Of a stretch of DNA of 64,000 nt, positions 16,187 to 34,363 are shown piece by piece. The stretch is from Pseudonocardiaceae bacterium. Lineage in GTDB: Bacteria; Actinomycetota; Actinomycetes; Mycobacteriales; Pseudonocardiaceae. The notes beneath the pieces were generated by a model that was not told the origin of the DNA, ran no database searches, and was given only the letters and a program-made list of their open reading frames with translations. Within the stretch, counting starts at the first letter, position 1; every line of letters begins with the position of its first letter. The DNA lies in assembly GCA_050700495.1 (NCBI GenBank), contig JBOHHF010000044.1, positions 948 to 64,947 on the forward strand, in the 5' to 3' direction. The position numbers were made by a program, and so were the translations under genes.

Positions 16187-16400
16187 ACTCGTGCTCCTGA
16201 CTGTGCTCGGTTCGGCGGCCGTGTCGAGGGTGGCCTGCGCGGGCGCGGCCTCTGGCCCCCAGCCTAGCGAGAAGGCGCCAGCCCGCGATCCGAATCGGTC
16301 TCGCCGCCCCCACCGGGGGTGACGAGCGCCACGCGATTATCATCGGCGTTCAGGTACCCATCCCTCCGATCAGCCCGATCAGCAACGACGAGGAGCCGCG

Positions 16401-17312
16401 GTGAATAATGCCGTCGAGGCTCCTTTGGCATCGCGCACCCGGCACCGCGGCGGTGTGTTGCGCGGCTACCTCGCTCTGACCAAGCCGCGAGTGATCGAGC
16501 TGCTGCTGGTCACCACCATCCCGGCGATGCTGCTCGCTGCGCGTGGGGTGCCGTCCTTGTGGCTGGTCCTGGCCACCCTGCTGGGCGGCATCATGGCCGC
16601 GGGCAGTGCGAATGCGCTGAACTGCGTCGCCGACGCCGATATCGACGCCCAGATGAAACGGACCCGGGCGCGGCCGCTGGTCACCCAAGAGGTGCCCCTC
16701 CGCCATGCGCTGGTCTTCGGGATTGCGCTGGGGGTGGCCTCGTTCGGCTGGCTGTGGGCCACCACGAACCTGCTGTCGGCGCTGCTGGCAGTCGCGACGA
16801 TCCTGTTCTACGTCTTCGTCTACACACTGGTGCTCAAACGCCGTACCTCGCAGAACATCATCTGGGGTGGCGCCGCAGGGTGTATGCCGGTGGTGATCGG
16901 CTGGTCGGCGGTCACCGGCACGGTGGGTTGGCCCGCGCTGGTGATGTTCGGTGTGATCTTCTTCTGGACGCCGCCGCACACCTGGGCGCTGGCGATGAAG
17001 TTCCGCGAGGACTACCAGCGGGTAGGCGTGCCGATGCTGCCCGCGGTGGCCTCCCCAGTGTCGGTGGCACGCCGGATCGTGGTGTTCAGCTGGCTGATGG
17101 TGGCCTGGAGCCTGCTGCTGATCCTGGCCACGAGCTGGATCTACGCCACGGTCGCGGTGCTGGCCGGCGGTTGGTTCGTGGTGATGGCGCACCGGCTACA
17201 CACCGCGGTTCGGCGCGGTCTGGCCGTCAACCCCATGCGGCTGTTCCACCTGTCCAACACTTACCTGGCGCTGGTGTTCGTCGCGATCGCCCTCGACTCA
17301 GTGCTGCTTTAG
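16401..17312 (+). CDS. ctaB: protoheme IX farnesyltransferase (heme O synthase)
   Basis: 303-aa polytopic protein with [34 protein letters not shown] (UbiA-family Asp-rich motif) and [12 protein letters not shown]. Divergent from tkt. Confidence 0.9.
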
Positions 17313-19494: not shown

Positions 19495-19545
19495 CAGCTG
19501 ACCTCTCAGGTGTTCGAGAAACCGTACGCACGAAAGACCTGACCG

Positions 19546-19752
19546 ATGAGAGAATCTCAAGCGCGCGGTCGGACGGGCCGACCGCTGATGTGGGGGGAAC
19601 CCCTAGTGGACTCAGATAGTGCCAAGCAGGCGACCTTCTACCTGCCAGTCGGCACGGTGACGTTCATGCTGACCGATGTCGAGGGCTCGACGCGTCTGCA
19701 GGAGTCCACTCCCGAGGCGATGGCCGCCGCTGAAGATCACGCTACAACCTGA
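19546..19752 (+). pseudogene. N-terminal stub of a class III adenylate/guanylate cyclase-domain (large LuxR/ATPase-type) regulator
   Basis: LPVGTVTFMLTDVEGSTRLQESTPEAMAAA is the canonical start of a cyclase catalytic domain. The ORF ends after 68 codons and runs into A/T-richer non-coding DNA. Confidence 0.6.
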
Positions 19753-19836
19753 CACCGACAAAAACGGGCCGCTCGCACAGTTACGTATTCAACCGATTGG
19801 TCACCGCCATCAGTCCATATCTCATTCCTCGTTCGC

Positions 19837-19868
19837 GACAGCCTGTTTCGACATGAAGACAGCCTGTC
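19837..19868 (-). terminator. imperfect hairpin / repeated GACAGCCTGT motif just after the reductase stop
   Basis: GACAGCCTGTT (19837-19847) and GACAGCCTGTC (19858-19868) are each near-palindromic and can pair. They lie 7 nt downstream of the TAA at 19875-19877 (minus strand). Confidence 0.3.
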
Positions 19869-19874
19869 TCGGCA

Positions 19875-21296
19875 TTAAGTGAGTCGGCTGAGGAAGCGGC
19901 CGACTTTGGCCACGGTGCTGGGGTTCTCGGTCAGCGCGTAGTCGTAGAGCGCGATGGGGATCGCGAAGGAGTACGTCGGGTAGGCGTGGATCGAGCTGAT
20001 GATCGCGTCGACGGTGAGGTCGTTGTTCATCGCCAAGGTCAGCTCGTTGATCAGCTCGCCGGCGCACTGCCCAGCGATGTGAGCGCCGATGAGCCGCCGT
20101 TTGCCGTCGATCAGGAACTTCATCAGGCCGACGGGTTCGGCATCAGTGACCGCACGTTCGTTGTGGCTGTACGGAAAGCGCACAATTTCGCAACTGTCGC
20201 CGGCCGCGCGCACCTGCGCCTCGGTGCGGCCGACGTGCGCGATCTCCGGGTCGGTGAAGGTCACCCAGGGCAGGTGGCCAGGGGCGAACTTCGCCTTGAT
20301 CGGGACGAAGATGTTGCGCACCGCATGCGCCGCCTGGTGACCGGCGTAGTGGGTGAACGCCGGCCCGCCGGTCACATCGCCGACGGCGTAGATGTGTGAC
20401 TGGTTGGTCTGGAGCAGGCCATTGACGGCGATTCCCCGCGCGTTGGTAAGAACCCCTGCGGCGTCGAGCTCCAGCGATTCCACTGTGGGCACCCGCCCGA
20501 CCGCGCACAGGATCTGGTCCACCCGCAGCTCGCCAGCGTCGACGGTGGGGCCAAGCGTCAGCACGACGTCCCCGCCGTCGCGGTGCACTTCGCTGAGCCG
20601 GGTATCCAGCCGCACGTCGATACCCTCATCGGCGAAATGGCGCTCCAGTATCTCGATCATCTCGGCGTCGTCGCGGGGGATCAGATGCGGCCCGCGCTGC
20701 AGCACGGTCACCGTGGAGCCGAGCCGGTGCAGCGCCTGCGCGAGCTCCACGCCGATCGGGCCGCCACCGATCACCGCCAGCCGGGCTGGTAGATCGTTCA
20801 AGTCGAAGACGTCCTCGTTGGTGAGGTAGCCGACCTCGGCCAGCCCCTCGACATCCGGTACCGCCGGGCGGCTACCGGAGGCGATCAGGACGAACTTGGC
20901 GGTGACATCTCGGTCTCTCACCCGCAGCGTGTGCGGGTCGCGAAAGGTGGCGCCGCCGAGCAGGACATCCACTCCGAGCTCGGAGAGCGCCTCGACGTCG
21001 TCGAGCTTGCCGATGTCGGCGATGGCCCGCTGCACCCGGGCGTTGACCGCGGCAAGCCCGGCGTGCACGGGCTGCACGGACAGTCCCCACCGCACAGCGG
21101 TGGCCGCCTCGTGGGCCACCCGGGATGCCTTGATCAGCGCCTTGCTCGGCACGCAACCGTAGTGCAGGCAGTCCCCGCCCAGCCGATCCTTGTCGATCAA
21201 CGCGACCCGCTTGGCGAAGAACCGGGCCAGCCGGGCAGCAGTCAGCCCACCCGACCCCGCCCCGATGATCGCCAGGTCGTACTCAAAGGACGGCAT
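19875..21296 (-). CDS. class I pyridine nucleotide-disulfide oxidoreductase (dihydrolipoamide dehydrogenase / mercuric reductase-like flavoprotein)
   Basis: YDLAIIGAGSGG FAD fold, redox disulfide GGDCLHYGCVPSK, second Rossmann LAVIGGGPIGVE and a C-terminal dimerisation domain with HAYPT. ATG 21296 is preferred over ATG 21374, which lies inside a hairpin arm. Confidence 0.85.
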   Translation of the reverse strand: MPSFEYDLAIIGAGSGGLTAARLARFFAKRVALIDKDRLGGDCLHYGCVPSKALIKASRVAHEAATAVRWGLSVQPVHAGLAAVNARVQRAIADIGKLDDVEALSELGVDVLLGGATFRDPHTLRVRDRDVTAKFVLIASGSRPAVPDVEGLAEVGYLTNEDVFDLNDLPARLAVIGGGPIGVELAQALHRLGSTVTVLQRGPHLIPRDDAEMIEILERHFADEGIDVRLDTRLSEVHRDGGDVVLTLGPTVDAGELRVDQILCAVGRVPTVESLELDAAGVLTNARGIAVNGLLQTNQSHIYAVGDVTGGPAFTHYAGHQAAHAVRNIFVPIKAKFAPGHLPWVTFTDPEIAHVGRTEAQVRAAGDSCEIVRFPYSHNERAVTDAEPVGLMKFLIDGKRRLIGAHIAGQCAGELINELTLAMNNDLTVDAIISSIHAYPTYSFAIPIALYDYALTENPSTVAKVGRFLSRLT

Positions 21297-21321
21297 GTCG
21301 CGTTGGTCCCCATCAGCCAGG

Positions 21322-21383
21322 GCGTTCTGGATGCAGACTGCCCTAATCGGGCCCTGGATTACCGCAGTCTGCATCCAGAACGC
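21322..21383. repeat. perfect 20-bp inverted repeat with 22-bp spacer
   Basis: GCGTTCTGGATGCAGACTGC (21322-21341) and GCAGTCTGCATCCAGAACGC (21364-21383). The repeat spans the stop codon of the Prx-like gene and sits upstream of the reductase start. Confidence 0.9.
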
Positions 21384-21900
21384 ATGTCGTTACCAGGCGC
21401 GCAGGGCGAACCCGGTCGTCGGGTGTGCGGGGCAGCCAGCGGCGGACCACGACGCCGTCGCACACCAGCGCGTCACCGCCCATCTGCCGGATGTCCTCCA
21501 CCGGCCGCGGCAGGTGCTGCCCGCGCGCTGCCGCGATCGCGTAGCGAGCCAGCGTTCCCGGCGAGTACACCTGCCACAGCCTGGCGCGGCGCATACCGAG
21601 CAACCCGTAGAGCCAGCGGTCCTCATCTGCGAGGAACAGACCCGGCCAGCCGACGTGGTCTGCGAGCGCGGCGAGCGCGGCGGGTGGGCTGAACCCGAAG
21701 GCGACCAACCCGATCGGGCAGCCGGCAGCCTGCTCGCGCACCTGCACCAGGTGCTGCTGGCAGGGCAGTCAATACCGGTGCCGGATCGCGGTGAGCAGGT
21801 ACCGGCCGGGTAGCACGCCGAGATCCACGGCCCGGCCGGTGCGTGCGTCGGGCAGCATGAGCCCGTCGAGCGGGACGGGCAGCTCGATCTCACGTGGCAC
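21343..21900 (-). CDS. peroxiredoxin-like thiol-disulfide oxidoreductase (AhpC/TSA_2, PRXL2-type) with an in-frame TGA at the first Cys of CxxC (candidate Sec codon or nonsense)
   Basis: Reading from GTG 21900 gives VPREIELPVPLDGLMLPDARTGRAVDLGVLPGRYLLTAIRHRY-TGA-LPCQQHLVQVREQAAGCPIGLVAFGF... The TGA (21769-21771) is in frame and gives x-L-P-C, where the family has C-x-x-C (compare FIRRPGCFLCRE). The start overlaps the radical SAM stop by 11 nt. Confidence 0.6.
21738..21754 (-). promoter_or_regulatory. SECIS-like stem-loop candidate 14 nt downstream of the in-frame UGA
   Basis: The mRNA reads UGA-CUGCCCUGCCAGCA-GCACCUG GUG CAGGUGC, a 7-bp stem with a G/U apical loop. Flanking GCCAGCAGC / GCUGCCGGC could add a lower stem. 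No folding was run. Confidence 0.3.
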
Positions 21901-23299
21901 TGCGATCCTGCTGCCGGGCGTCGACGATCGGCAGCAACCGGCGCAGCTCGACGTTCTCGACCGGATCGAGCACCGAGTGCTGCACGCAGGCGGGGACGAG
22001 CTCGCCGGTCTCCGGGTGGGCCATCGCGTAGTGGCAGGACGCGAGCCGCTCCTGGGTGGCGAGAATCCGCGGATCGGCGGCTTTCTCGCCGCGTTGCATC
22101 AGCTCCCACGCCGGCGCGACGTCTGCTGCGTCCATGAACTGGTGCACCACGAACGACACCGGTCGCACGCCGTGTCGCAGCAGGATCGCAACTCCACCGA
22201 CGCGCCGTACGAGGCGGGCGATCCACCGGGCCGCGATCACCACGATCACCGGATGGCGCACGATCGTCCGCACCAGCTTGCCGGCCAGGTCCGGCGCCTC
22301 CACCCCGGTGAAGTTCACCCCACCGAAGTAGCGGAAGAAGGCGTCCCTGGTGGCGCGGTCACCGGCGTCGTCGCCGGTCAGGAACGGGTGCCAGCGTGGG
22401 CCGACGAAGAACCCGTAGGCCGCTCGGTTGCAGCGCACGTCGCCGTGCTGGAACGCGGTGTAGTCCAGCTCGCCGCCCGCACCCCGCTCGATCTCCTGCC
22501 ATACCTCGTCCATGCCGGTCTGCTCGTAGTCCTCGTGCCAGCGCCGGTTGTCCCCGACGAACGCCGCAGGCTGGAAAGAGAACATCCCGAAACCCATCGC
22601 GCGGCAGTCCCGCACGACGTCGGCGACCTGGCCGAGGTTCGCCGGGGTGACGGTCATGTTGTGCGCCAGGAAGAACCGCACCCCGTGCGTGCAGCGCAGC
22701 CGGGTGAACATGTCGACGAACTTCTGCCGGTACGGATTGAGCTCCCGCTCGCTGCCCGCCCGCGGGATGTCACGGCGGCCGAACATGAGCATGTCGAAGT
22801 GCCCGGCGAAGGACAGCCGCCGCAGCCGTGGCCGTCCATGCTCATCCAGCGCGAGCTGCTCCAGATAGTCGTAATCGAAGTCGCCGTGGGACATGCTCAT
22901 CGGCTCACGCCCGTACCGGCGCATGGTCAGCAACGTCGCCGCGTGGTCGTCCGGGCTGAGCAGGGTCACCTCCCCGCCGATCAGCTGCGCGTGGGCCCGC
23001 GGACCACGCAGCCGGCGCAGCAGTGCCATCTGCTTGTCGACCTCGGCGATCGTGTGCGCACCGTCCACGCGGACCCGGTTGGCGTCCCGCGAGTGGTAAC
23101 ACGGTGTGCAGGCCAGGTCGCATCGCGGGAACACCCCGTGGGTTCCCTCACAGCCCACCGCATGCTTGCCGAGGAGCTGACCGGGTGTCTTGACATGCTC
23201 GGGAAGCTCCGCCCAGCGGCGGTCCAGCACGGCGGCGAACTCCGGATCGACCGGCCGGGTTCGGCGTTCCCACCGTCGCAACACATCGATCACGCTCAT
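21890..23299 (-). CDS. radical SAM enzyme, unassigned family (469 aa, hydrophobic helix near C-terminal third)
   Basis: GVFPRCDLACTPCYH contains CxxxCxxC. A long TIM-like region follows (LIGGEVTLL, FFLAHNMTV, FSFQPAAF), then hydrophobic VRHPVIVVIAARWIARLV and a C-terminal Cys/His pair (SCHYAMAH...PACVQH). ATG 23299 follows GAAAGG. Confidence 0.8.
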   Translation of the reverse strand: MSVIDVLRRWERRTRPVDPEFAAVLDRRWAELPEHVKTPGQLLGKHAVGCEGTHGVFPRCDLACTPCYHSRDANRVRVDGAHTIAEVDKQMALLRRLRGPRAHAQLIGGEVTLLSPDDHAATLLTMRRYGREPMSMSHGDFDYDYLEQLALDEHGRPRLRRLSFAGHFDMLMFGRRDIPRAGSERELNPYRQKFVDMFTRLRCTHGVRFFLAHNMTVTPANLGQVADVVRDCRAMGFGMFSFQPAAFVGDNRRWHEDYEQTGMDEVWQEIERGAGGELDYTAFQHGDVRCNRAAYGFFVGPRWHPFLTGDDAGDRATRDAFFRYFGGVNFTGVEAPDLAGKLVRTIVRHPVIVVIAARWIARLVRRVGGVAILLRHGVRPVSFVVHQFMDAADVAPAWELMQRGEKAADPRILATQERLASCHYAMAHPETGELVPACVQHSVLDPVENVELRRLLPIVDARQQDRSAT

Positions 23300-23414
23300 G
23301 TGCACTGCGCCTTTCTGTGCCCTTCCCGTGACCGCGGTTCGCGCCGGCAGACCCTCCGTTGGCCCTGACGTTACCGACCGCTGGGCTGCCAGGACATACC
23401 CGTGGTTTTTCGTT

Positions 23415-23440
23415 GGTCGGGTCGAACCGGTTCGCCGACC
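23415..23440. promoter_or_regulatory. palindrome in the divergent radical SAM intergenic region (operator candidate)
   Basis: GGTCGGGT-CGAACCGGTTCG-CCGACC. The 12-bp core CGAACCGGTTCG (23423-23434) is a perfect palindrome and the flanks extend it with a 2-nt bulge. Confidence 0.35.
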
Positions 23441-23493
23441 GGTGAGAACACATGCTTGTGGCGGCGTAGCGGGGCCGATGAGAGGGTGTGCCG

Positions 23494-23532
23494 ATGACGA
23501 GGCTGGCTCTACGACGAGATTGGCCCCCATGA
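23494..23532 (+). other. 12-codon upstream ORF (MTRLALRRDWPP) with stop overlapping the main ATG (ATGA)
   Basis: ATG 23494 lies 7 nt after GAGAGGG. The TGA at 23530-23532 overlaps ATG 23529 of the fusion gene. Its first six codons encode the same MTRLAL as the main ORF. It is part of a 3-copy 17-18-nt tandem repeat (23494-23546). Confidence 0.3.
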
Positions 23533-25217
23533 CGAGATTGGCACTGTGCGGTGGGACCTACTCCAACCCCTACGCGTTGCGAGCTTTCGTGGCCGACGCC
23601 CGGGGGCGCGGTGCCGGCCGGCTGTGGTGCCTGGGTGACTTCGGTGCCTACGGCGCGGAGCCGGAGGCGATCTGGCCGTTACTGACCGGCAACGGCATCG
23701 AGTGCATCGCCGGCAACTACGAACTCGCCATCGGCCGGGGCGACCCCGACTGCGGCTGCGGGTACGCCGACGCCGACGACAACGCCTTCGCCGCGATCGC
23801 CTATGACTACACCCTGCGGCACACCTCCACGGAGTTCGCGGCGTGGATGCGGACCTTGGCCACCGAGCATCGGGAGACCGTCGGCGGGGTAGCGGTGCAC
23901 CTCGTGCACGGCTCCCCGCTGGCCGTCAACGACTTCTGGTGGGAATCACTGCCTGACGACGCGCACCGGATGCGGATCGAGGCGTCCGGTGCGGAGGTGA
24001 TCTGCTGCACGCACTCCGGGCTGCCGTGGACCAGGCGTTTTTCCGGTTCGGGCCGCGACACCCTGGTAGTTAACGTCGGGGTGCTCGGCCGGCCGGCCAA
24101 CGACGGTGGCCAACACGTCTGGTACGCGCTGCTGGACTGCGCCGACGGCCACACCACTGTCGACCTGGTGGCCCTGGACTACGACTGGCAGGCGCACGCC
24201 GCCTCGATGCACGACGCCGGGTTACCGGAGGCGTTCACCCAGGCCGTGGAGACCGGATGGTGGACCACCTGCCTGGAGATCGTGCCGCCGGTGGAACGTT
24301 CCCGTGGTCGCTTCCAGCTCTACAAATCGGCGATGCCGTCCTTCGCCGGCGCGGCGGTCTCCTGGGCGGCAGCGCCGGAGATCCCGGACAACGGCCTGCC
24401 GGTGCTGCCGCTGTTCGGCTCCGCGCTGTTCCCGCCCCGCCTGTGGCTCTACATCAACTTCCACTGCAACCTGGCCTGCAGCTACTGCTCGGTCGCCTCG
24501 TCCCCGCTGGCCCGCCGTCGCCAGCTGGGCCTGCCCCGCTTCCGGGAACTGGTGGACGACGCGGTCGCGGAGGGCTTCACCGAGCTGTACGTCACCGGTG
24601 GCGAGCCCTTCCTCGAACGCGACCTTGTCGAGATGCTGCTGTACGCCACCGAGCAGCTCGACGTGGTCTGCCTGACCAACGCCATGCTGTATCAGGGCTG
24701 GCGACGCACCCAGCTGGAGCGGCTGGCCGGACGCCAACGGCTGATCCTGCAGACCTCACTGGACGGAGCGCAGGCCGATTTCCATGACGCCTACCGGGGG
24801 CCCGGGTCCTGGGCCAAGGCGATGGACGGCCTGGACGTGGCCCTGTCACTGGGGCTGCCGGTACGGGTAGGCATGACCGAGACGGCGCAGAACTCCACCC
24901 AGATCGAGCCGCTGCGGGCGCTGCTGGCCGCCAAGGGGATACATGGCCGGGACTTCGCAGTGCGGCCGCTGGTCAAGCGGGGATTCTCCGTCGACGGGGT
25001 GGCCATCAGCGAGGACAACACCGTGCCGGAGCTGACCGTCACCACTGACGGATGGCACTGGCACCCGGCCGGCGCTGACCTCGACACCTCGCCGGACATG
25101 CTGCTCGCCGGACCCGACGTCAGCATGGCCGAGGCCAAGCGGCGCGCGGTGGAGTTGTTCCTGCGGCTTCGCCAGCGCGACGGCTCACTACCGCTGGTCT
25201 ACAACTGTGCCGTCTAA
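23529..25217 (+). CDS. metallophosphoesterase (CGCGY subfamily) - radical SAM fusion protein
   Basis: 562 aa. The N-terminal half has LGDFGAYG, IAGNYE, GDPDCGCGYAD, VHGSP, CCTHSG and GVLGRPANDG (calcineurin-like fold). The C-terminal half has LYINFHCNLACSYCSV (CxxxCxxC), YVTGGEPF and LQTSLDG, with no SPASM-type Cys cluster. Confidence 0.8.
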   Translation: MTRLALCGGTYSNPYALRAFVADARGRGAGRLWCLGDFGAYGAEPEAIWPLLTGNGIECIAGNYELAIGRGDPDCGCGYADADDNAFAAIAYDYTLRHTSTEFAAWMRTLATEHRETVGGVAVHLVHGSPLAVNDFWWESLPDDAHRMRIEASGAEVICCTHSGLPWTRRFSGSGRDTLVVNVGVLGRPANDGGQHVWYALLDCADGHTTVDLVALDYDWQAHAASMHDAGLPEAFTQAVETGWWTTCLEIVPPVERSRGRFQLYKSAMPSFAGAAVSWAAAPEIPDNGLPVLPLFGSALFPPRLWLYINFHCNLACSYCSVASSPLARRRQLGLPRFRELVDDAVAEGFTELYVTGGEPFLERDLVEMLLYATEQLDVVCLTNAMLYQGWRRTQLERLAGRQRLILQTSLDGAQADFHDAYRGPGSWAKAMDGLDVALSLGLPVRVGMTETAQNSTQIEPLRALLAAKGIHGRDFAVRPLVKRGFSVDGVAISEDNTVPELTVTTDGWHWHPAGADLDTSPDMLLAGPDVSMAEAKRRAVELFLRLRQRDGSLPLVYNCAV

Positions 25218-25272
25218 GCTGGATCACGACGCTGTCTGCCCCGATGCCGCAGCTGCTGACGGAGGTGATCCA

Positions 25273-25572
25273 GTGATCGCGAAGTTTGACGCCGTGCATG
25301 ATCAGATTGCGGAGCTCTGCCGTCGTTACAGGATCGCTGAACTCAGCGTGTTCGGCTCGGTCGCACGTGGTGACGATCGTCCCGGCAGCGATATCGACCT
25401 GCTATACGTGTCTGCGTCAGGCAGCACGAGTTCTTTGTGGGAGCTATGGGAACTGCGCGACGAACTAACGCAGCTACTCGGCCGCAAGATCGACTTGGTG
25501 TCAAAGGACAATCTGCACTGGGTGATCAGGGACCGCGTTCTCAACGAAGCTAGGCCTGTGTATGCTGCGTGA
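25273..25572 (+). CDS. MNT-type nucleotidyltransferase antitoxin
   Basis: FGSVARGDDRPGSDIDLLY is the minimal nucleotidyltransferase motif. GTG 25273 follows GGAGGTGA. It overlaps the next gene by 11 nt. Confidence 0.8.
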   Translation: MIAKFDAVHDQIAELCRRYRIAELSVFGSVARGDDRPGSDIDLLYVSASGSTSSLWELWELRDELTQLLGRKIDLVSKDNLHWVIRDRVLNEARPVYAA

Positions 25573-25930
25573 CAATCTCTACCTCGCTGAGATCGTGGAG
25601 GCGATCGACCGGATCACTCGCTGGCTCGATGGAATCGACGAGGACGGATGGGACGGCGATGAGATGCGTCGTGCCGCCGTACTGCAGCAACTGACCACGA
25701 TCGGCGAAGCTAGCCGCAGTGTCAGTGACCAGCTACAAGAACGGCATCCGGATGTGCCGTGGCGACGGATCGCGGACTTTCGAAATGTGGCGGTGCACGA
25801 GTACTTCTCCATCGAGTGGTCGTTGGTCTGACGCTTGGCGCAGGATCGGTTGCCGATTCTGCGATCCCAGATCATGAAGGTGATCGAGGTAGATTTTCCC
25901 GATATTGGTTCGCGGTTCGAAGAACGCTGA
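25562..25930 (+). pseudogene. HepT (DUF86, HEPN) toxin with in-frame TGA at a conserved Trp
   Basis: The RNVAVHEY Rx4HxY motif is present. The ORF stops at TGA 25829-25831 in ...SIEWSLV-TGA-RLAQDRLPILRSQI..., where the family has V-W. The same frame stays open for 32 more codons to TGA 25928-25930. Confidence 0.75.
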
Positions 25931-26033: not shown

Positions 26034-26858
26034 CTATTCGCCCACCGGTTGGCTGCGGGTAACTTCACGATGCTGGCCCCGGTACTGCCAACGCAGCCGC
26101 CAGGGTCGCAGGGCGGACTCGACCTTGACACGAAAGTCCATCTTGGACTGACCGACGGCGCGGTCGGTGAAGTGGATGGGTATCTCCATGATCCGGCAAC
26201 CCCGCCGGCGGGCAAGGAAATTCATCTCGACCTGGAATGCGTAGCCGTTGGATCGAACGCGGACGAGATCAAGACTTCGGAGTTCATGGGCGCTCCACAG
26301 CTTGAAACCGGCCGTGGCGTCCTGGATGGTCAGGCCGAGGACGCGGTTGGCGTACCAGTTCCCGAATCCTGACAAGTACTTGCGGTGGATGCCCCAGGCG
26401 CTGTCGATACTGCCGCCGGGCACGTAGCGGGAGCCGATCACGAGATCCGCGCCCGTCCGCAATGCGGTACGCAGCAGCCGGGGAATCGCGTCTACTGGAT
26501 GGGAGCCGTCCGCGTCCATCTGTACGATCCACTCCGGCTCGTCGGGCGCGCCGGGGAACTGGTCGGTGTAGCCGTTGAGCGCGGCGGTGAACCCTTCCAC
26601 GTAGGCGCGACCCAGTCCGTCCTTCATCGTGCGGTGCAGGACTGATACGCGCTCGTGGGTCTGGGCCAACTCGTCAGCCAGCTTGCCGGTGCCATCCGGC
26701 GAATCGTCATCAACGACGAGAACTCGGAGCCCTTCCAGGGGCAACGCGAGCAACGCGTCCACCAGCGTCGGCAAGTTGTCCGCTTCGTTGTAGGTGGGCA
26801 CTACCACCGTCACCGGCGTGCGCCACTCGTCGCCGCGCAGCTCGGCGAATTCGGTCAC
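26034..26858 (-). CDS. GT2 polyprenol-phosphate mannose/glucose synthase (DPM1/Ppm1-like)
   Basis: VVVPTYNEADNL, VLVVDDDSPDGT, IVQMDADGSH and GSRY motifs, with a C-terminal FKLW...NGYAFQVEM segment. Confidence 0.8.
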   Translation of the reverse strand: MTEFAELRGDEWRTPVTVVVPTYNEADNLPTLVDALLALPLEGLRVLVVDDDSPDGTGKLADELAQTHERVSVLHRTMKDGLGRAYVEGFTAALNGYTDQFPGAPDEPEWIVQMDADGSHPVDAIPRLLRTALRTGADLVIGSRYVPGGSIDSAWGIHRKYLSGFGNWYANRVLGLTIQDATAGFKLWSAHELRSLDLVRVRSNGYAFQVEMNFLARRRGCRIMEIPIHFTDRAVGQSKMDFRVKVESALRPWRLRWQYRGQHREVTRSQPVGE

Positions 26859-28091: not shown

Positions 28092-30542
28092 ATGTTCATC
28101 GGCCGGGCGATCTGATCGCCAAGATCTACGAGTTCAGCGCCAACGACATCTTCGGAGAACTGGGAACCGGCAAAACCTCAATCCTTCAGCACCTCGAACA
28201 GAACCTCACAGTTGACGCGCAGGACCCGCGCCCGGTCCGTGTCAACCTTGAGGACTTCAACCCGGGGCACCGCGGCGAGCATGGGAGGGAGGCCTCCCTC
28301 GGGGCAGTGCAGGGAAGCTTCCAGCAGTTCTCCGCGCTGCTCGAGACCCTGGTCCAGCAGGCGTGCCCGGAAGCCCTCGGAGGCTTCCAGGCCGATGTCG
28401 CCAACGCGCGGAACGCGGAGGTGCTGGGCGCCAGGGTGTCCAGCCTCGAGGAGAGCATGGAAGAGTTAGAGCGCCTGCTCGATCCCCAGGACCTCGCCAC
28501 GGCCTGGCGCTCGGCCAAGGCCGTCGTCGCCGACAGCTTCGTCTCCCGCTGGAATGCGGCGGCGACGAGGCGCACGCTGCTCATCGACAACGTCGACGAG
28601 GTCGCTGACCAGGAGATCGGCACCTGGGTGGGAGAGTTGCTTGCGCGCCTGACCCGGACGACCGTGATTCTCACGCGAACACCCGAGGGGCACCCCTTCC
28701 CCTGCCTGCGCATGTGGTTCCCATCCCGATCACCAACTTCGACAAGCGCGAGGTGCGCGAGTATCTCGACGAATCAGCCAAGCTGGCTCGTCCTCCTCGC
28801 AAACCCGTCTCAGAACCTCTCGCGGAGGAGGTACACAACGTTAGCCAGGGTCATCCGGCGACGGTCGCCGCCGTCGATGAGCTGCTGTGGGGCTCCGACG
28901 CCCTCCCCGGTACGGACCCGCGCGAGTTCCTCCGCGACCTTGACAAGCTGCCGGATGAGGAGAGGGCGGCGGCTCTCGTCGAGCGACTGGTGCGAGACGA
29001 CGACGTCCTGGAAAGGGCACTGTGGGCAGCAGCGGTGCCACGCCAGTTCGACGCGCGCCTGCTGGAGGATCTGCTCGCCGACCCACCCTTGTCCCGCAAC
29101 GACCAAAATCGCGTGTTCGAGAAGCTGGAGGGTTTCACGTTCACCGAGGAGCTCCCGCCGGACGAGGAGCTCCCGCCTCGCTTTCGACTGCACTCGTATG
29201 TGCGCAACGGGCTGCTCCAGCGCATGTGGCGGACCGATCCTAAGCGCCTCGACGCCCTCCACGCGCGCGCGGCTGACCACTACATACGCGATCTGATAGC
29301 GGCGGGCCAGGACGGCAGTGCCTACTGCTACGGGGACGCGTTCATCTACGAGGACCCAGTGTGGCAACGCAACAAGCGCGAGTGGCTCTACCACCGGGGG
29401 CACGCCACCAGCGAAGACGCCCAGCTCAACGCCCTGCTCGAGTTCACCCGCTTGTTCCTCGACGCGTTCTGGTGGTGGGGGAACTACATCCACTTTGATT
29501 TCTGTGACCAGCTCGTTACCGACCTCGCGGACAGCCGGGTGCCGAAGGGGCGCCGGGTGCCGAAGGGGCGCCGGGTGCCGAAGTTGGAGGCGCTAAGTCA
29601 GGACCTGCGATGCATCCTCCGCGAGTATCCGTTGCGGTCGGTGAAGTCACAAGGCGCCAAATGGGACGACGTGCGGGAGGCACTACTGGACGTGCGGCGG
29701 CTGTGCGGCCTCCAGACCCGTGATGACCGCCGGCTGACCAAGGACCAGCGTCATGTTGCGGCGCTGCTCCTCGTGTTCCTAGCTCACACTTATCGTTACC
29801 AGGCACCCGAGCAACCGGAGGCGGACCAGTGCTACAGCCGAGCAGCGGACCTGTTCGCACAAGACGAAGACTGGAGCGAGGCGTGGGTCGCCTTCGAGCG
29901 CGCCGACTTGCGCCGAGAGTGCGGCGAGACGGATGCCGTCCCCGATCTCTGGCGACATGCCGCCGGACTAGTGCAGCCGGACGAGGTTGAAGCAGCAAGC
30001 ATCGAGATCGCGAGCGAGGCACAGGCTGCGGCCGCGCAGCAGGCCAAGGATGCGGTCGACCAGGAACTGGTGAGCAACCTCCACTGGTTGCGGGGCGACT
30101 GCTGCTTGGCGAGTGGTGACGAGGCGCGCTCGGCCACGTGGTACGGGCGCGCTGTCTTGCACGCATACCTCTTTCATCTCGTCGGCGGCCCGCCTGACGA
30201 CTACACACTGCAGTTCTACGTTGACCTTCGCGCACGGGCACTGAGCCTGCTCTTCCACGTCTGGCAGCGGGGAGACCAGGACGCGGCTGTCGCTCTGGCG
30301 ACCGAGATGGCTCGGGCCTTCCCCGCGACGCCTGGCCGAGAGCCGGTCGTAGGCCGGATCAGCTGCGACTGCTGCTGGCGGGCGGGAAGCCCGTGCCGCT
30401 GGCGCACGCGCTGTTCCCCCGAGGCCCGGAGGTGTCGGAGCTCGGAAGCCAAAAATCGCCGTTCATCAAGGAGTTCAACGCGCTCGAATGGGCACTCCAG
30501 CAGCGGGCATTGGGCGACCTGCACGACCCGGCATGGCCGTGA
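28092..30542 (+). pseudogene. STAND-type P-loop NTPase with helical-repeat C-terminus, three frameshifts
   Basis: MFIGR (ATG 28092 after GAGGAGG) stops after 7 codons. Walker A GELGTGKTSIL is in the -1 frame, as are Walker B LLIDNVDEV and TVILTRTPE. The text continues in the next -1 frame from about 28700 (IPITNFDKREVREYL ... long helical region). The last 60 codons (PDQLRLLLAGG...HDPAWP) are again -1, from about 30345 to TGA 30540. Confidence 0.7.
29536..29583 (+). repeat. perfect 18-nt tandem repeat, 2.7 copies, inside the NTPase gene
   Basis: (CGGGTGCCGAAGGGGCGC)x2 plus a 12-nt partial copy, encoding RVPKGRRVPKGRRVPK. Confidence 0.95.
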
Positions 30543-31867
30543 CACGACGTGGGCATCCGCCCGTCCGTCCTTCTCAGATGCTCAGGCGCATGAGCCTATG
30601 GCTCATGGGCTTCCTGGCCGTGGCAAGCGTGCTGGTGTTGGTCGTCTGGGCGATACCCTCGTGGTTGACGCAGGAGTCGGCCCTAGCTGAAGCGGAGCGC
30701 TACAAGGCGATGGCGGACGTGCGCACCGGGCTCGCCGCGGCCCTCGCAGCGCTCGGCGCCGCCGGCGGTCTGGCCTACACGGCACGCACTTTCCGGCTCA
30801 GCCAGGTCGGCCAGCTGACCAGCCGGTTCGAGAGCGCCATTAAGCAGATGGGTGACGACGACCAGACGGTTCGGCTCGCCGGCATCCATGCGATGGCGCA
30901 GCTGGCGGACGGGTGGGTCGAGCAGCGCCAGACCTGCGTCGACGTCTTGTGCGCTTTCCTGCGCGTGACGCGACCCCAGTCGGACGATCTGCGGGAGGCG
31001 CATCGCGTCACGCTCCGCATCATCAGGGCGCACCTACGTCCAGGGCGTCGCCAGGTTAGCTGGCAGCAATGTGAGTTTGACCTCACGGGCGCTGTCCTGA
31101 AGGAAGCGGACTTCACCGGGGTCAACTTCGCCAGTGCACGCTTCCTTTTCGAGGAGGCGCACTTCGAGGGAAACGCGCGTTTCGACGGGGCGACGTTGGG
31201 GGCTGTGTCAGCTTCCGCGGCGCGAAATTTTCGGAGCAAGAGAGCAGCGTTTCCTTCACCAACGCAGAGTTTCGTGGCGGCAAGGTGGTGTTCGACGACG
31301 TGACGTTCGCGGAGGGGCGGCCAGCTTCGACGAAGCAGTCTTCGAGCCGCGCTGTCAGGTCACCTTCAAGGGTGCCAAGCTAGGGAACGGGGTCTCCTTT
31401 AGGGGTGCAACCGTGCAGGGGCCTGGTCTGCGTTTCGAGAATGCCAGCTTCTCCTCTCAGAAGGCCTGGTCCGGTTCGACGGCGCGACGTTCAGCGGAAC
31501 GGTGCACTTCGACAGAGCGGAGTTCGATGGTGACGTGACCTTCAACGATGCCAAGCTAGGGTTAGGCGGAGCCAACCTGATCTTCGCGGGCGCTAAATGG
31601 ATCAAAGGCCGGATCTCCTTCAAAGGGGCCGACTGCGAGGCCATGACCGTGGATCTCAAGGAGCCGGACGTGCGGCTGGGCAAAATCGACTTCCGTGGGG
31701 CCAATGGCACCCCCCGGATCATCCCCACGAACCCTGGTCCTCCCCTCGTGGTGGAGGGGGGACCAGCTGACGCCGTGACCGCGGCTAAGACGTCTGGACA
31801 CCTACGGCGGCCGCAGGCATCATCGAGCAGCCAACACCGGAGCGACCGCTCCGGTGCACGGTTATAA
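30533..31867 (+). pseudogene. membrane-anchored pentapeptide-repeat protein, three frameshifts
   Basis: ATG 30533 overlaps the NTPase stop. It has an N-terminal TM helix (LWLMGFLAVASVLVLVVWAI) followed by A(D/N)FxG-type repeats (ADFTGVNFASARF, AHFEGNARFDGATL). The repeat text continues across frames 2>1>0>2, with breaks at the G-run 31198-31202, the G-run 31314-31317 and about 31466-31472. Confidence 0.65.
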
Positions 31868-32253: not shown

Positions 32254-33534
32254 TCACGGGGCAATCTGAGCGTAAGCGCTGGCCACTTCGTCGACCTGCT
32301 CGTACCCGACGCGGAGCAGAAAGGTGCTGTTGCGTCCGTAGGACTTCATGCCCAGCACGAAGAAGTTCGGTTCTGGCACCCGCAGCGCGTCCACCCCGTG
32401 CGACGCCTGGGCCAGGCAGTCCGCCGGACCAGTGGCGCTGCTGCCCGCAGCGCCCAGCAGTGCCGCTGACAGGTTCATCGGTGCGGCTGTGGCATAGCAC
32501 TCGTGCACCTGCAGCTGCCGGTACAGCGAGGTGTCACCCAGGAAGCCGGTCAACCCGATGATGCGATCGACGACGACCTCTTCGACGTCGCCGGAGTTGG
32601 ACCGAAGAGTGACGACCACACCGTCGTCCGATTTGCGTAGTGCGTCGATCACCACGGCGGTGCGCACCTGGATCCCCGGCACTGCACCCGACTGCAGCCG
32701 CTGGGCCACCTCGACCAGCTCCTGGCGCTGCGCCAGGGGGTCGCCGGGAACCTCCCCCCAGTCCGGGTCGGTGGACCGCACCGCCCACACCACCTGGGTG
32801 CCGGGCCGCGCGACGACCAGCTCAGCGAGGTCACGGGCCGCGGTCTGGGCTGACTTGCCGGCACCGACCAACAGCACCCGGCGACCCGCCCACTCGTCGG
32901 CCTCGCCGGCCAGATCGGGAATCCGGCGGATGATCCGGTCGGCCACCTGCAGCTCGCCCGGAGCTGGGATGCCGCCGTCACCGAGGTGGTTGGCGCGGTC
33001 GTAGCTGCCGGTGCAGTCCAGCAGCAGGTCCGCGTGCGCCACCCGTTCGAAGTTGTTCGGGCCGGCGAGGAGCAATCGGAACGGCTGCGAACCGCGCTGC
33101 GTACTACCGATCTCCTCGTGCTTGAGCAGCCCTTGCCGGGCGACGGCGAGCACCCTGGTATCGCAGCGAATGGTGGCCGCCAGCTCGGGCAGCCCGGCCA
33201 GCGGGCGAAGGAGCTGTTCGGCGAACTCCCCGCCGGTCGGGCAGTGCTCGGCGGGTCCTGGCGGCTGCATACCAGCGGCCCGGAGATGCATGTGCATCCG
33301 TGCCGACACGTTCATCGACCAGGGTGTGAACAGCCGGATATGACTCCATGCAGTGACGTTCGCTGCCACCGAGGCAGCCGACTCGTACACGGTGCAGGGC
33401 CATCCGTTGTCCAGGCAGGCCAATGTGGCATCCAGGCCGATCGGCCCGGCGCCGAGGATCGCGACGTGGCCCGGTCCGGGAACGGGAGCGGGCCGGTCCC
33501 GGCTCTCGGTAGTGGCGTCGGCGACCGCTGTCAC
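32254..33534 (-). CDS. FAD/NAD(P)-binding oxidoreductase (two Rossmann folds)
   Basis: VAILGAGPIGLD and VLLVGAGKSAQTA dinucleotide-binding motifs. GTG 33534 follows GGAGGA. The upstream part of the long ORF overlaps the divergent GT2 gene and looks non-coding. Confidence 0.65.
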   Translation of the reverse strand: MTAVADATTESRDRPAPVPGPGHVAILGAGPIGLDATLACLDNGWPCTVYESAASVAANVTAWSHIRLFTPWSMNVSARMHMHLRAAGMQPPGPAEHCPTGGEFAEQLLRPLAGLPELAATIRCDTRVLAVARQGLLKHEEIGSTQRGSQPFRLLLAGPNNFERVAHADLLLDCTGSYDRANHLGDGGIPAPGELQVADRIIRRIPDLAGEADEWAGRRVLLVGAGKSAQTAARDLAELVVARPGTQVVWAVRSTDPDWGEVPGDPLAQRQELVEVAQRLQSGAVPGIQVRTAVVIDALRKSDDGVVVTLRSNSGDVEEVVVDRIIGLTGFLGDTSLYRQLQVHECYATAAPMNLSAALLGAAGSSATGPADCLAQASHGVDALRVPEPNFFVLGMKSYGRNSTFLLRVGYEQVDEVASAYAQIAP

Positions 33535-33634
33535 GTGTCCTCCGTCAGCTCGGTCGTACTCGGTTGGCCCGTAAAGTGTGGGCCACTCCAGCAAACCTAT
33601 TCGACGCGCACAGGAGATCGGATCGACCACGACC

Positions 33635-34363
33635 ATGGTGAGCAAGCCGGCGACGGTGTCGATCGTGGTGCCCGCGCTCAACGAGGCGGCATGCATCGAG
33701 GGCTGTCTGCAACGGTTGCGCCGCGACTTTCCGGACGGCGAGCTGGTGGTGGTGGACGGCGGCAGTATCGATGAGACCTTCGACCTCGCAGCGCGGCATG
33801 CCCACACCGTCCGCAGCGTGCCGGGCCGCGCCGTCCAGATGAACGCTGGAGCCGCACTGACCACCGGTGACATCCTCTGGTTCATCCACGTGGACTGCCA
33901 GGTCCCGGCCGAGGCCCTGGACCTGCTCCGGCGCGCGATGCTCGACCCCGACGTGGTCGGAGGAGGGTTGCAGCTGAGCTTCGATCAGCGCACGCTGGGG
34001 TTGGACTATCTGGCAATCAGCTCCAACCAGCGGGCTCGGCGGCTGCACTGGATCTTCGGCGACCAGGCGATGTTCGTCCGCCGGGAGGTGTTCGAGGCGG
34101 TGGGCGGCTTTCCTGAGTTACCGCTCATGGAGGACCTGGAGATGTCCCGGATCCTACGGCGACATGGCCGGCTCGCGGTGCTGCCGGCCACTGTCACCGC
34201 ATCGGCCCGGCGGCTCGTCGAGCAGGGGACGTGGCGCATGACCGTGCTGATGCAGGTTCTCAAGCTGCAGTACTTCCTCGGCGTAGACCCGGAGCGGATT
34301 CGTCGCCGCTATGAAGCCGGCACTCGTCGCGGGCGCCGGCGCCGCTCGGCCTCCTCCCAGTAG
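33635..34363 (+). CDS. GT2 glycosyltransferase
   Basis: VSIVVPALNEA, LVVVDGGSIDET, ILWFIHVDC and MEDLEMS motifs. The C-terminal tail is Arg-rich. Confidence 0.75.
   Translation: MVSKPATVSIVVPALNEAACIEGCLQRLRRDFPDGELVVVDGGSIDETFDLAARHAHTVRSVPGRAVQMNAGAALTTGDILWFIHVDCQVPAEALDLLRRAMLDPDVVGGGLQLSFDQRTLGLDYLAISSNQRARRLHWIFGDQAMFVRREVFEAVGGFPELPLMEDLEMSRILRRHGRLAVLPATVTASARRLVEQGTWRMTVLMQVLKLQYFLGVDPERIRRRYEAGTRRGRRRRSASSQ

Follow-up and report, generated by a model that had tools for sequence, protein, structure and literature searches.

A conserved gene cluster with two radical SAM enzymes and a predicted selenoprotein redox couple, and its possible place in arsenosugar-type organo-metalloid chemistry

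To our knowledge, only three makers of arsenic-carbon bonds that depend on S-adenosylmethionine (SAM) are known (ArsM, ArsS and ArsL), and the steps that follow ArsS in the formation of arsenosugars and arsenolipids are unassigned. ArsS and ArsL are radical SAM enzymes that form As-C bonds (PMC12159101; bioRxiv 10.1101/2024.02.01.577332). ArsS adenosylates dimethylarsenite in arsenosugar synthesis (PMC12159101, citing its reference 61), and ArsL binds As(III) through an appended cysteine tail (bioRxiv 10.1101/2024.02.01.577332). Here we describe a gene cluster from a Pseudonocardiaceae bacterium whose most probable role is the synthesis or detoxification of organic arsenic compounds. It lies in a stretch of 64,000 nucleotides (GenBank assembly GCA_050700495.1, contig JBOHHF010000044.1, positions 948 to 64,947), hereafter called the window and numbered from its first letter, whose DNA has a G+C content of 63-72% and is most closely related to Pseudonocardiaceae metagenome-assembled genomes (MAGs). 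On the minus strand the core encodes a divergent radical SAM enzyme, R1 (21890..23299), a peroxiredoxin-like (Prx-like) predicted selenoprotein (21343..21900) and a class I flavoprotein disulfide reductase, FDR (19875..21296). Facing them on the plus strand is the gene for MPE-rSAM2 (23529..25217), a fusion of a metallophosphoesterase (MPE)-fold domain with a second radical SAM domain (rSAM2). An earlier note made from the sequence alone had read these genes as a self-contained module that it could not match to any described pathway.

Gene neighborhoods were surveyed by tblastn and de novo gene-family clustering in 80 species-representative loci encoding R1, drawn from at least 576, and presence was counted in the 49 species-level loci with at least 6 kb flanking R1 on both sides. 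FDR is found in 46 of these 49 loci, MPE-rSAM2 in 38, a TIGR04283 glycosyltransferase in 37 and a second flavoprotein, FOX, in 33. Less frequent partners are TIGR04282/DUF2064 (23/49), an MTAP-like phosphorylase (21/49), an extracytoplasmic function (ECF) sigma factor (20/49) and an ArsM-like methyltransferase (16/49). The Prx-like protein with its predicted selenocysteine (Sec) is present in 17 loci and MauE in 16, never together. Wherever the fusion was found, the tblastn matches to its MPE and rSAM2 halves adjoin each other on the same strand. Because this co-localization is repeated across two phyla, in dozens of genomes at species level, it is more than chance, and the core genes almost certainly form a real, conserved functional unit. 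The earlier note had held both that these genes act together and that their adjacency would be fortuitous if homologs were not co-localized in other genomes. Their frequencies and recurrent gene orders in two phyla bear out the former, and a lack of co-localization elsewhere is clearly not what is seen.

The unit is larger than the core. Seven sister loci close to the window have the contiguous order GT83-FOX-MPE_rSAM2-R1-Prx-FDR, and larger versions of the cluster add genes for MTAP-like, TIGR04282 and ArsM-like proteins, a major facilitator superfamily (MFS) transporter and an ECF sigma/anti-sigma pair, so the module is not self-contained. Streptomyces has the order ArsM / sigma, anti-sigma / FDR-MauE-R1-MTAP-TIGR04282-TIGR04283-MPE_rSAM2-FOX, and one further locus (L043) reads MPE_rSAM2-GT83-FDR-R1-Prx. 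The most complete single-operon version is that of "Ca. Nephthysia bennettiae" (Dormibacterota; L085/L086), with R1-MTAP-DUF2064-GT2-MFS-MPE_rSAM2-Prx(Sec) in one operon and FDR divergent, which shows that the system exists outside the Actinomycetota. The redox parts are swapped between lineages, being Sec-Prx with FDR, MauE with FDR or, in Burkholderia, thioredoxin (Trx) with CcdA. Because Prx, MauE and Trx+CcdA replace one another, a thiol-redox function appears to have been kept by selection. The earlier proposal, in which a private thiol or selenol reductant is paired with two radical SAM chemistries, holds across phyla, although the parts that supply the reductant do not stay the same.

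Families were assigned with the Pfam and NCBIfam profile libraries, each score being judged against the cut-off of its own model, and structures were compared by Foldseek searches with AlphaFold (AF2) models and by sequence-profile searches against the PDB. Both glycosyltransferases of the Streptomyces cluster score above their cut-offs (TIGR04282, 157 bits against 134; TIGR04283, 229 bits against 182). The window gene GT83 (plus strand, 33578..34363, likely start near 33650) does so as well: it encodes a TIGR04283-family GT2 glycosyltransferase (227 bits against 182) that shares 64% identity with its Streptomyces counterpart inside the cluster, and it is the only cluster gene to reach the cut-off of a curated NCBIfam family. 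Divergent from it is FOX (minus strand, 32254..33534, exact start uncertain), a flavoprotein of approximately 400-425 amino acids with two dinucleotide-binding sites and weak profile matches to Pyr_redox_3 and to the N-terminal part of YpdA. FOX is 57% identical to a gene family of the survey (cluster 3, 33 loci) and directly adjoins MPE-rSAM2 in sister loci. In the window, FOX and GT83 lie 7-9 kb further on from the core, from which they are displaced by inserted genes; the approximately 7 kb between them and the fusion gene holds an MntA/HepT pair, another GT2 and other genes. The statement that no known pathway partner is visible was thus wrong, since a TIGR04283 member and a conserved flavoprotein are present at this distance.

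Organo-arsenic chemistry is suggested by three independent lines of evidence, namely the TIGR04282/TIGR04283 glycosyltransferases, an ArsM-like neighbor and the occurrence of R1-like genes beside arsS. Both glycosyltransferase families carry the NCBI name "arsenosugar biosynthesis glycosyltransferase", presumably on account of the ArsS that accompanies them according to their family descriptions. The top matches of the ArsM-like gene are all arsenite methyltransferases (193 bits with NF008823), and the cysteine motifs SACC, YGCG, SNCV and GECL can be made out by eye. Loci of Streptomyces, Jatrophihabitans and Actinoplanes have it beside the cluster, as do two uncultured lineages, a Mycobacteriales MAG and an unclassified Actinomycetota MAG, and in one locus (L056) it directly adjoins R1. 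On plasmids of Burkholderia thailandensis and B. glumae, R1-like genes are clustered with PGAP-annotated arsS, an ECF sigma/zf-HC2 pair and Trx+CcdA. A Roseomonas plasmid has the order TIGR04282, DUF547, R1-like, an unfused rSAM2 homolog, a Phn-like ABC transporter and an unfused DCGCG phosphoesterase (32% identity to the MPE domain, E 2e-35), with MauE and an FAD oxidoreductase downstream on the opposite strand. DUF547 is a neighbor in 21 of 21 metagenomic loci with flanks from this proteobacterial R1-like clade (L090-L169; also L081, L082 and L084) and is absent from all actinobacterial loci. Taken together, these observations leave the chances about evenly divided that the cluster supplies the radical and redox chemistry at the heart of an organo-metalloid pathway of the arsenosugar type, and we judge it a fifty-fifty matter whether its substrate is arsenic or another metalloid.

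R1 is a protein of 469 amino acids whose cluster motif reads C60-DLA-C64-TP-C67 (CX3CX2C), with the three cysteines unchanged across 42 homologs. Four further cysteines (C50, C290, C422 and C438) are invariant from actinobacteria to the Burkholderia and Roseomonas relatives, and these, with several histidine and aspartate residues, persist even in proteobacterial relatives at 25% identity. The invariant signature is C50, H-x-D, SFQP, C290-N-R, H-x-F-M-D, C422 and C438, and the four extra cysteines could be ligands of an auxiliary cluster or of a thiophilic substrate. The family is large, with more than 2644 homologous protein clusters and 589 representatives at 50% clustering, and identity is approximately 70% among Pseudonocardiales, Streptomyces, Propionibacteriales and one Dormibacterota genome. 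Profile scores are low: Pfam Radical_SAM (PF04055) gives 20.7 bits, under its gathering score of 29.5, and the faint matches to TrsS (NF045646, 23.8 bits against 490) and Tes (NF045702, 18.5 bits against 450) do not place R1 in either family. Tes and TrsS are also the best NCBIfam models for distant full-length relatives, at only 42-67 bits. A sequence search against PDB chains found no meaningful relative. With the AF2 model (pLDDT 77.7, pTM 0.83), Foldseek matches are generic radical SAM cores alone (SkfB, AbmM, CteB, DesII and viperin; TM approximately 0.3, E 1e-4 to 2e-3), and no functional assignment follows from them. The CX3CX2C motif and the partial TIM-barrel core predicted by the model nevertheless place R1 in the radical SAM superfamily. 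The internal hydrophobic helix reported earlier exists as a hydrophobic helical segment (approximately residues 338-385), although not as a clear transmembrane helix: it is rich in arginine, its top 19-residue Kyte-Doolittle mean is 1.53, and AlphaFold predicts it inside a confident helical bundle, so we rejected R1 as a membrane-spanning protein. Contigs encoding the distant relatives are 2-3 kb long and offer little flanking context. Apparent fusions of R1 with a TIGR04283-type glycosyltransferase occur in P0044 (762 amino acids) and L066 (10001-12136), and a distant relative, P0206 (597 amino acids), is apparently fused to a VPGUxxT-type thioredoxin-like (seleno)protein domain.

MPE-rSAM2 has 562 amino acids, with the MPE-fold domain at residues 1 to approximately 244, a disordered linker at 245-299 and the radical SAM domain at approximately 300-562 (AF2 pLDDT 79.3). 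Pfam finds Metallophos_2 (PF12850, 32.4 bits against 27) and Radical_SAM (58.5 bits), and there are 1519 homologs, those listed being mostly full-length. The MPE domain (23529-24260) is nearest SapH, 3rqz, 1nnw and PH1004 by Foldseek (TMt 0.75-0.80, E 1e-12 to 1e-15), and by fold and Pfam score it belongs to the calcineurin-like metallophosphoesterases. Its motif I departs from the canonical D-x-H: CGGTYSN is aligned to SDVHAN in 3rqz and SDIHGN in SapH, replacing D-x-H by G-x-Y. Residues C7, G8, G9, Y11 and N13 are family-invariant, as are the cysteines C7, C75 and C77 (DCGCGY) and C160, and motif III reads GNYE. The unfused Roseomonas homolog retains DCGCG. Such a domain could hold an altered metal site or a thiophilic, perhaps As(III), binding site, and it may combine a phosphoesterase fold with a chemistry other than hydrolysis. 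The phosphoester hydrolysis step proposed earlier is uncertain for the same reason, the canonical Asp and His of motif I being absent.

The rSAM2 domain carries its cluster motif as C313-NLA-C317-SY-C320. Its best family is the Rv1681 family (NF049973), with 255.5 bits against a cut-off of 380, the alignment spanning positions 72-326 of the 326-position model. Scores with MoaA (52.6 bits against 284) and HpnH (33 bits against 225) are far lower. No SPASM match was found in Pfam and there is no conserved cysteine between C320 and C560 that would suggest a SPASM or twitch domain. Profile searches of the PDB returned BlsE (69 bits), SkfB (62) and AbmM (44), and SkfB and BlsE are also the Foldseek neighbors of the predicted structure.

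The Prx-like gene opens at a GTG (21900), overlapping the R1 stop by 11 nt, and encodes a thioredoxin-fold protein of 185 amino acids (AhpC-TSA_2/SelL-related) with RHRY-U-LPC as the motif around an in-frame TGA (21771..21769). The Sec of this U44-L-P-C47 motif would occupy the first redox cysteine site of the thioredoxin fold. AhpC-TSA_2 (PF13911) is matched with 35.1 bits against 27, and the SelL-related model NF040769 with 80.9 bits over nearly its whole length, under the cut-off of 120. All 33 orthologs from other genomes have a TGA in [RH]-x-U-[LV]-P-C, the pattern expected of a bacterial selenoprotein, and the Dormibacterota ortholog likewise has one (HRHLH-U-LPC). The 33 nt past the UGA are almost invariant as nucleotides, even between proteins at 52% identity, and at third codon positions the entropy is 0.39 bits over codons 44-55 but 0.97 bits across the whole gene. 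This stretch includes a hairpin resembling a Sec insertion sequence (SECIS), GCACCUG-GUG-CAGGUGC (minus strand, 21738..21754), whose stem begins 14 nt and whose loop begins 21 nt past the UGA; the usual search model for bacterial SECIS elements places the hairpin approximately 16-37 nt downstream. RNAalifold gives the consensus GCACCU-(G/C)GU(N)C-AGGUGC. The stem of the Dormibacterota hairpin is wholly different (GCGAUCAC/GUGAUCGC), yet the same CGUGC loop stands at the same distance. Comparative evidence of this kind took the place of single-sequence folding, which was not significant in this 68% GC DNA (z = -0.54), and the loop position and synonymous-site constraint are those of a SECIS hairpin. 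Very probably, then, this is a genuine selenoprotein with Sec insertion. The family is systematically mis-called in public databases: among the 120 homologs listed of 167 (P0271-P0390), named "AhpC/TSA family" or "peroxiredoxin-like", nearly all are fragments of 104-154 amino acids beginning after the TGA, and no full-length cysteine form was seen. A tRNA scan of the window found no tRNA genes, hence no selC, and an Rfam scan of the window found no annotated RNA element.

FDR (473 amino acids) starts at 21296, which is 46 nt past the Prx-like stop. It shows the FAD, NAD(P)H and dimerization domains and the CxxxxC motif (C-LHYG-C) of a class I flavoprotein disulfide reductase (Pyr_redox_2, 207 bits; Pyr_redox_dim, 97 bits), followed by a cysteine-free C-terminal tail of approximately 30 residues with no C-terminal cysteine pair. 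Its top NCBIfam model is NF004991 (450 bits against 620), and it remains under the cut-offs of MerA (362 against 454), lipoamide dehydrogenase (354 against 409), mycothione reductase (262 against 501) and glutathione reductase (285 against 480). Judged by these scores it belongs to no named equivalog. It is the probable, though by no means certain, reductase of the Prx-like protein. No core gene maps cleanly to a characterized family, the NCBIfam scores being below cut-off throughout. What the earlier note had read from the individual genes stands in its particulars: R1 with 469 residues and CDLACTPC, a CGCGY phosphoesterase joined in 562 residues to a CNLACSYC radical SAM domain without SPASM, a Prx-like U/CxxC protein whose reading frame overlaps the R1 stop by 11 nt, and a class I oxidoreductase with CLHYGC at the spacing given above.

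If the substrate is a metalloid, it would be a thiol-reactive one, methylated arsenic being the likeliest, to which a SAM-derived (5'-deoxyadenosyl or ribosyl) unit is joined, and the product would then be processed and exported. Electrons would pass from NAD(P)H through FDR (FAD, then C-LHYG-C) to the selenenylsulfide of U44/C47, and this pair might keep the metalloid trivalent or thiol-bound, reduce pentavalent metalloid or re-reduce a disulfide in R1. In a step like that of ArsS, one radical SAM enzyme would add the 5'-deoxyadenosyl radical to the metalloid. The enzyme in question is probably rSAM2: R1 is accompanied either by ArsS, as in Burkholderia, or by rSAM2, which makes rSAM2 the likeliest equivalent of ArsS. 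Adenine would then be removed by a phosphorylase, encoded in the cluster elsewhere and presumably a housekeeping enzyme in the genome of the window. The cysteine-rich phosphoesterase-fold domain, TIGR04282 and TIGR04283 would process the 5-substituted ribosyl unit and transfer it to an acceptor, FOX might oxidize the product to a stable pentavalent form, and R1, with its four extra invariant cysteines as an auxiliary cluster or As(III) site, would perform a second radical step. Taken singly, each of these assignments is doubtful. A bolder version, which we consider unlikely, is that R1 founds a new class of radical SAM reaction on an organo-metalloid, with the Sec-Prx and its private FDR acting as a dedicated selenoenzyme that reduces pentavalent or thiol-bound arsenicals for it. 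The reaction might then be a second As-C bond or the assembly of an arsenolipid or arsenosugar-phospholipid, and As(III) or an auxiliary cluster would be held by the four extra cysteines. If true, this would amount to selenium-dependent arsenic biotransformation in aerobic soil Actinobacteria and Dormibacterota.

Several observations weigh against an arsenic pathway. Homologs of ArsM, MTAP-like, TIGR04282, CDP-alcohol transferase, YnjB/C-like, DedA and sigma proteins were searched for in the window and none was found; the 64 kb also hold no ArsS, and no ars resistance genes were identified there in a search that was not exhaustive. The arsenosugar system as a whole is not present in the window, which has only TIGR04283 and the phosphoesterase-fold domain. 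The names of TIGR04282 and TIGR04283 are predictions from gene context, only ArsS and ArsM being experimentally grounded. The score of the ArsM-like gene (193 bits) is under its NCBIfam cut-off of 263, and ArsM-type enzymes can act on selenium or tellurium too. The rSAM2 domain matches ArsS (TIGR04167) with 38 bits in the N-terminal core only, against a cut-off of 300, is 24% identical to B. thailandensis ArsS over 137 residues, and lacks the cysteine-rich C-terminal domain of the ArsS type, C560 being its sole C-terminal cysteine. Hydrolysis by the MPE domain, to judge from motif I, is unproven. The universal partner in the proteobacterial R1-like clade is DUF547, and only approximately 4 of the 21 loci have ArsS or an rSAM2-like gene next to the R1-like one. 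The target of the redox couple is a guess, because a disulfide reductase cannot donate electrons to radical SAM clusters. Lastly, the 80 surveyed loci are the most similar among the at least 576, and the counts are skewed toward Actinomycetota.

The same genes can be read without a metalloid, as a pathway to a modified (thio-, seleno- or deoxy-) ribosyl or nucleoside-derived metabolite or cofactor, which we think unlikely. Here rSAM2 would remodel a nucleoside sugar, the MTAP-like, TIGR04282, TIGR04283 and phosphoesterase proteins would handle the sugar-phosphate, FDR and Sec-Prx would supply reducing equivalents or sulfur or selenium chemistry, and the ArsM-like enzyme would methylate the product. 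BlsE and AbmM, which are among the nearest solved relatives of rSAM2, are nucleoside-sugar enzymes, although the likeness is limited to the generic radical SAM core. Nucleotide phosphodiesterases, among them SapH (Ap4A hydrolase/phosphodiesterase), are what the MPE domain resembles, 33 of the 49 loci have no ArsM-like gene, nor has the window, and the ECF sigma/ZAS-type anti-sigma (weak RsrA match), mycoredoxin, CcdA and MauE neighbors would suit general thiol stress. This account has to reckon with ArsM-like genes that recur beside the cluster in several genera, with a PGAP-named ArsS adjoining R1-like genes and with two glycosyltransferase families that are those accompanying ArsS. Modification of membrane lipids is a less probable reading, which would make R1 a distant relative of Tes that uses radical chemistry to couple carbon of a lipid tail to carbon or a heteroatom and would have GT2, CDP-alcohol phosphatidyltransferase, DedA and MFS proteins build and flip a glycolipid or phospholipid head group. 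The ranking of Tes and TrsS as best models of the distant R1 relatives (42-67 bits) points this way, as do the hydrophobic, amphipathic helical segment of R1 and the "type C" loci, where a CDP-alcohol phosphatidyltransferase and a YnjB/C-like ABC transporter come directly after R1 and DedA is frequent. For the window R1, however, the Tes score is 18.5 bits against 450, no solved Tes-type (GDGT/MAS) structure is among the 50 best Foldseek matches, a clear transmembrane helix is lacking, and the window has no adjacent lipid-synthesis genes. The lipid reading would overlap with the arsenic one if the product were an arsenolipid or an arsenosugar phospholipid.

Two further readings fare much worse. 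The weak matches of rSAM2 to SPASM-type peptide maturases and MoaA (50-66 bits), and the Mycobacterium tuberculosis Rv1681 gene, which we take to be annotated moeX, could suggest maturation of a ribosomally synthesized and post-translationally modified peptide (RiPP) or a molybdenum-cofactor (MoaA/MoeX-like) role for the Rv1681-like domain. This is very improbable: rSAM2 has neither a SPASM/twitch cysteine set nor a second-cluster motif, family clustering shows no conserved small open reading frame (ORF) and no peptide-transport or protease partner, and the conserved partners process sugars and nucleosides. We rejected RiPP maturation on the missing cysteines and small ORF, and a MoaA-like function on its score of 52.6 bits, far under 284. 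Chance adjacency, with the Prx-like protein and FDR as an ordinary AhpC/AhpF-like peroxide defense beside unrelated radical SAM genes, would agree with the AhpC-TSA_2 domain and with the generic class I character of FDR. The neighborhood survey effectively refutes it and leaves it scarcely any probability, given co-localization in 46 of 49 loci from two phyla in several gene orders, the 11-nt overlap of the R1 stop with the Prx start, and the replacement of an absent Prx by MauE or Trx+CcdA.

The divergent intergenic region between R1 and MPE-rSAM2 (23300..23528) measures 229 bp and, as noted earlier, contains a palindrome. This sequence, CGAACCGGTTCG at 23423-23434, is a perfect palindrome with one exact occurrence in the window, and it recurs in the R1/MPE-rSAM2 spacer of 16 window-type loci (within L001-L021), invariant inside an otherwise variable alignment. 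It is probably the operator of some regulator. Scanning 19500-25900 for consensus sigma-70 promoters and terminators turned up nothing promoter-like and, within R1, a single terminator-like site, which is fewer than expected by chance. In other lineages an ECF sigma factor and a zinc-finger (ZAS-type) anti-sigma factor with a weak RsrA match accompany the cluster, and this companionship fits control through thiol-reactive stress.

Directly after the fusion gene, and overlapping its end, are genes for an MntA-like nucleotidyltransferase and a HepT-like ORF of 89 amino acids (25207..25831), confirming the earlier identification of an MNT/HepT pair. The pair scores under NCBIfam cut-offs, is absent from the sister loci and is part of the approximately 7-kb insertion that splits the cluster. 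It is followed by a GT2 resembling polyprenol-phosphate-sugar synthases (cluster c28; minus strand, 26034..26858), which also adjoins MPE-rSAM2 in three sister loci (L002, L004 and L006) and may be a lineage-specific accessory gene. Further on, a plus-strand ORF of 658 amino acids (28714-30690) has no family match and contains a tandem PKGRRV-PKGRRV, and a pentapeptide-repeat ORF (30488-31303) overlaps it. A transketolase gene and the heme O synthase gene ctaB (14081-17312) flank the cluster. Because these tkt-ctaB neighbors recur in sister loci, the cluster appears to hold a stable chromosomal position in this lineage. Among the other surveyed loci, a third context (L023, L051, L056, L063, L068, L071, L073, L080 and others) places a CDP-alcohol phosphatidyltransferase directly after R1, together with a YnjB/YnjC-like ABC transporter, and often does without MPE-rSAM2 and the glycosyltransferases; we take its transferase, binding-protein and permease families to recall those of the uncharacterized E. 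coli ynjABCDEF operon. The 3' flanks of three Streptomyces loci (L035, L041 and L053) encode a MerB-like organomercurial lyase, a MerR-like protein and a further FDR, possibly MerA, and in L024 an SO_0444/SaoE-like permease lies upstream of the cluster. These flanks are metal(loid)-resistance islands.

The cluster is found in hundreds of soil actinobacteria. For the steps downstream of ArsS it offers concrete candidates, and these occur in cultivable Streptomyces and Pseudonocardia relatives. R1 is a very strongly conserved radical SAM family without a name, a model or a structure, with relatives in at least 576 species-level genomes. The fusion defines a cysteine-rich phosphoesterase-fold/radical SAM enzyme type, and FDR with the Prx-like protein is a predicted new reductase-selenoprotein couple. 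Should the arsenic link be wrong, a widespread, stress-regulated pathway with two radical SAM enzymes would still be left.

Comparison with known systems shows which parts of the cluster are familiar. Searches of the literature for Rv1681 with radical SAM, for DUF547 with radical SAM and for the R1 cluster found no paper. The Rv1681 (MoeX) family, for which we know of no tested function, differs from the fusion in that the N-terminal 70 positions of its model are missing and are replaced by the linker and the phosphoesterase-fold domain. Tes and TrsS are the only NCBIfam families that resemble R1 and its distant relatives, with alignment over the radical SAM core. They differ in that scores reach 18-67 bits against 450-490, R1 itself is not a selenoprotein, and R1 has an invariant signature of its own. 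With SelL-related and other Prx-like U-x-x-C selenoproteins the Prx-like protein shares the AhpC-TSA_2 fold, the U-x-x-C motif, the SECIS-like hairpin and an adjacent class I reductase, whereas here it is tied to a radical SAM operon and not to peroxide defense. Its pairing with FDR has analogies in Trx/TrxR and AhpC/AhpF, although FDR has neither a C-terminal redox center nor an AhpF-type N-terminal domain. Hopanoid side chains are made by the radical SAM enzyme HpnH, the phosphorylase HpnG and the glycosyltransferase HpnB, and related clusters also combine radical SAM, PNP/MTAP-type phosphorylase and GT2 genes in one operon. The MTAP-like gene has a faint HpnG match and the glycosyltransferases have faint HpnB matches, but the cluster has no hopanoid genes, and the likeness would be one of pathway logic only. 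ArsL of arsinothricin biosynthesis acts with ArsM on As(III) and uses extra cysteines to bind arsenite, not a second cluster, and R1 and the MPE domain both have unexplained invariant cysteines. They differ from ArsL in having no sequence match and no RCCLKC tail in R1 or the fusion, and no ArsL-type model (e.g., NF040542 with the RCCLKC tail) was among the NCBIfam matches listed at E <=0.01, which for the fusion are the best 25 of 45 families.

The closest described system is the arsenosugar neighborhood of ArsM, ArsS, TIGR04282, TIGR04283 and a phosphoesterase, so the earlier view that the locus matches no described pathway no longer holds, at least for this predicted context. The window shares TIGR04283 with it, and related clusters share TIGR04282, the phosphoesterase-fold, the MTAP-like and the ArsM-like proteins. 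Both systems have a radical SAM enzyme and a selenium-using component, and on Burkholderia plasmids R1-like genes adjoin a true ArsS. The differences are that no ArsS member is present, that the second radical SAM enzyme is Rv1681-like and fused to a phosphoesterase, and that unnamed R1 and the FDR/Sec-Prx (or MauE) redox module form the core. A radical SAM enzyme with TIGR04282/TIGR04283 and a phosphoesterase, sometimes with selenium, is a known kind of neighborhood by family curation; what no paper that we found describes is the joint occurrence of R1, the Rv1681-like/cysteine-rich phosphoesterase-fold fusion, an obligate-Sec Prx-like protein and its private reductase.

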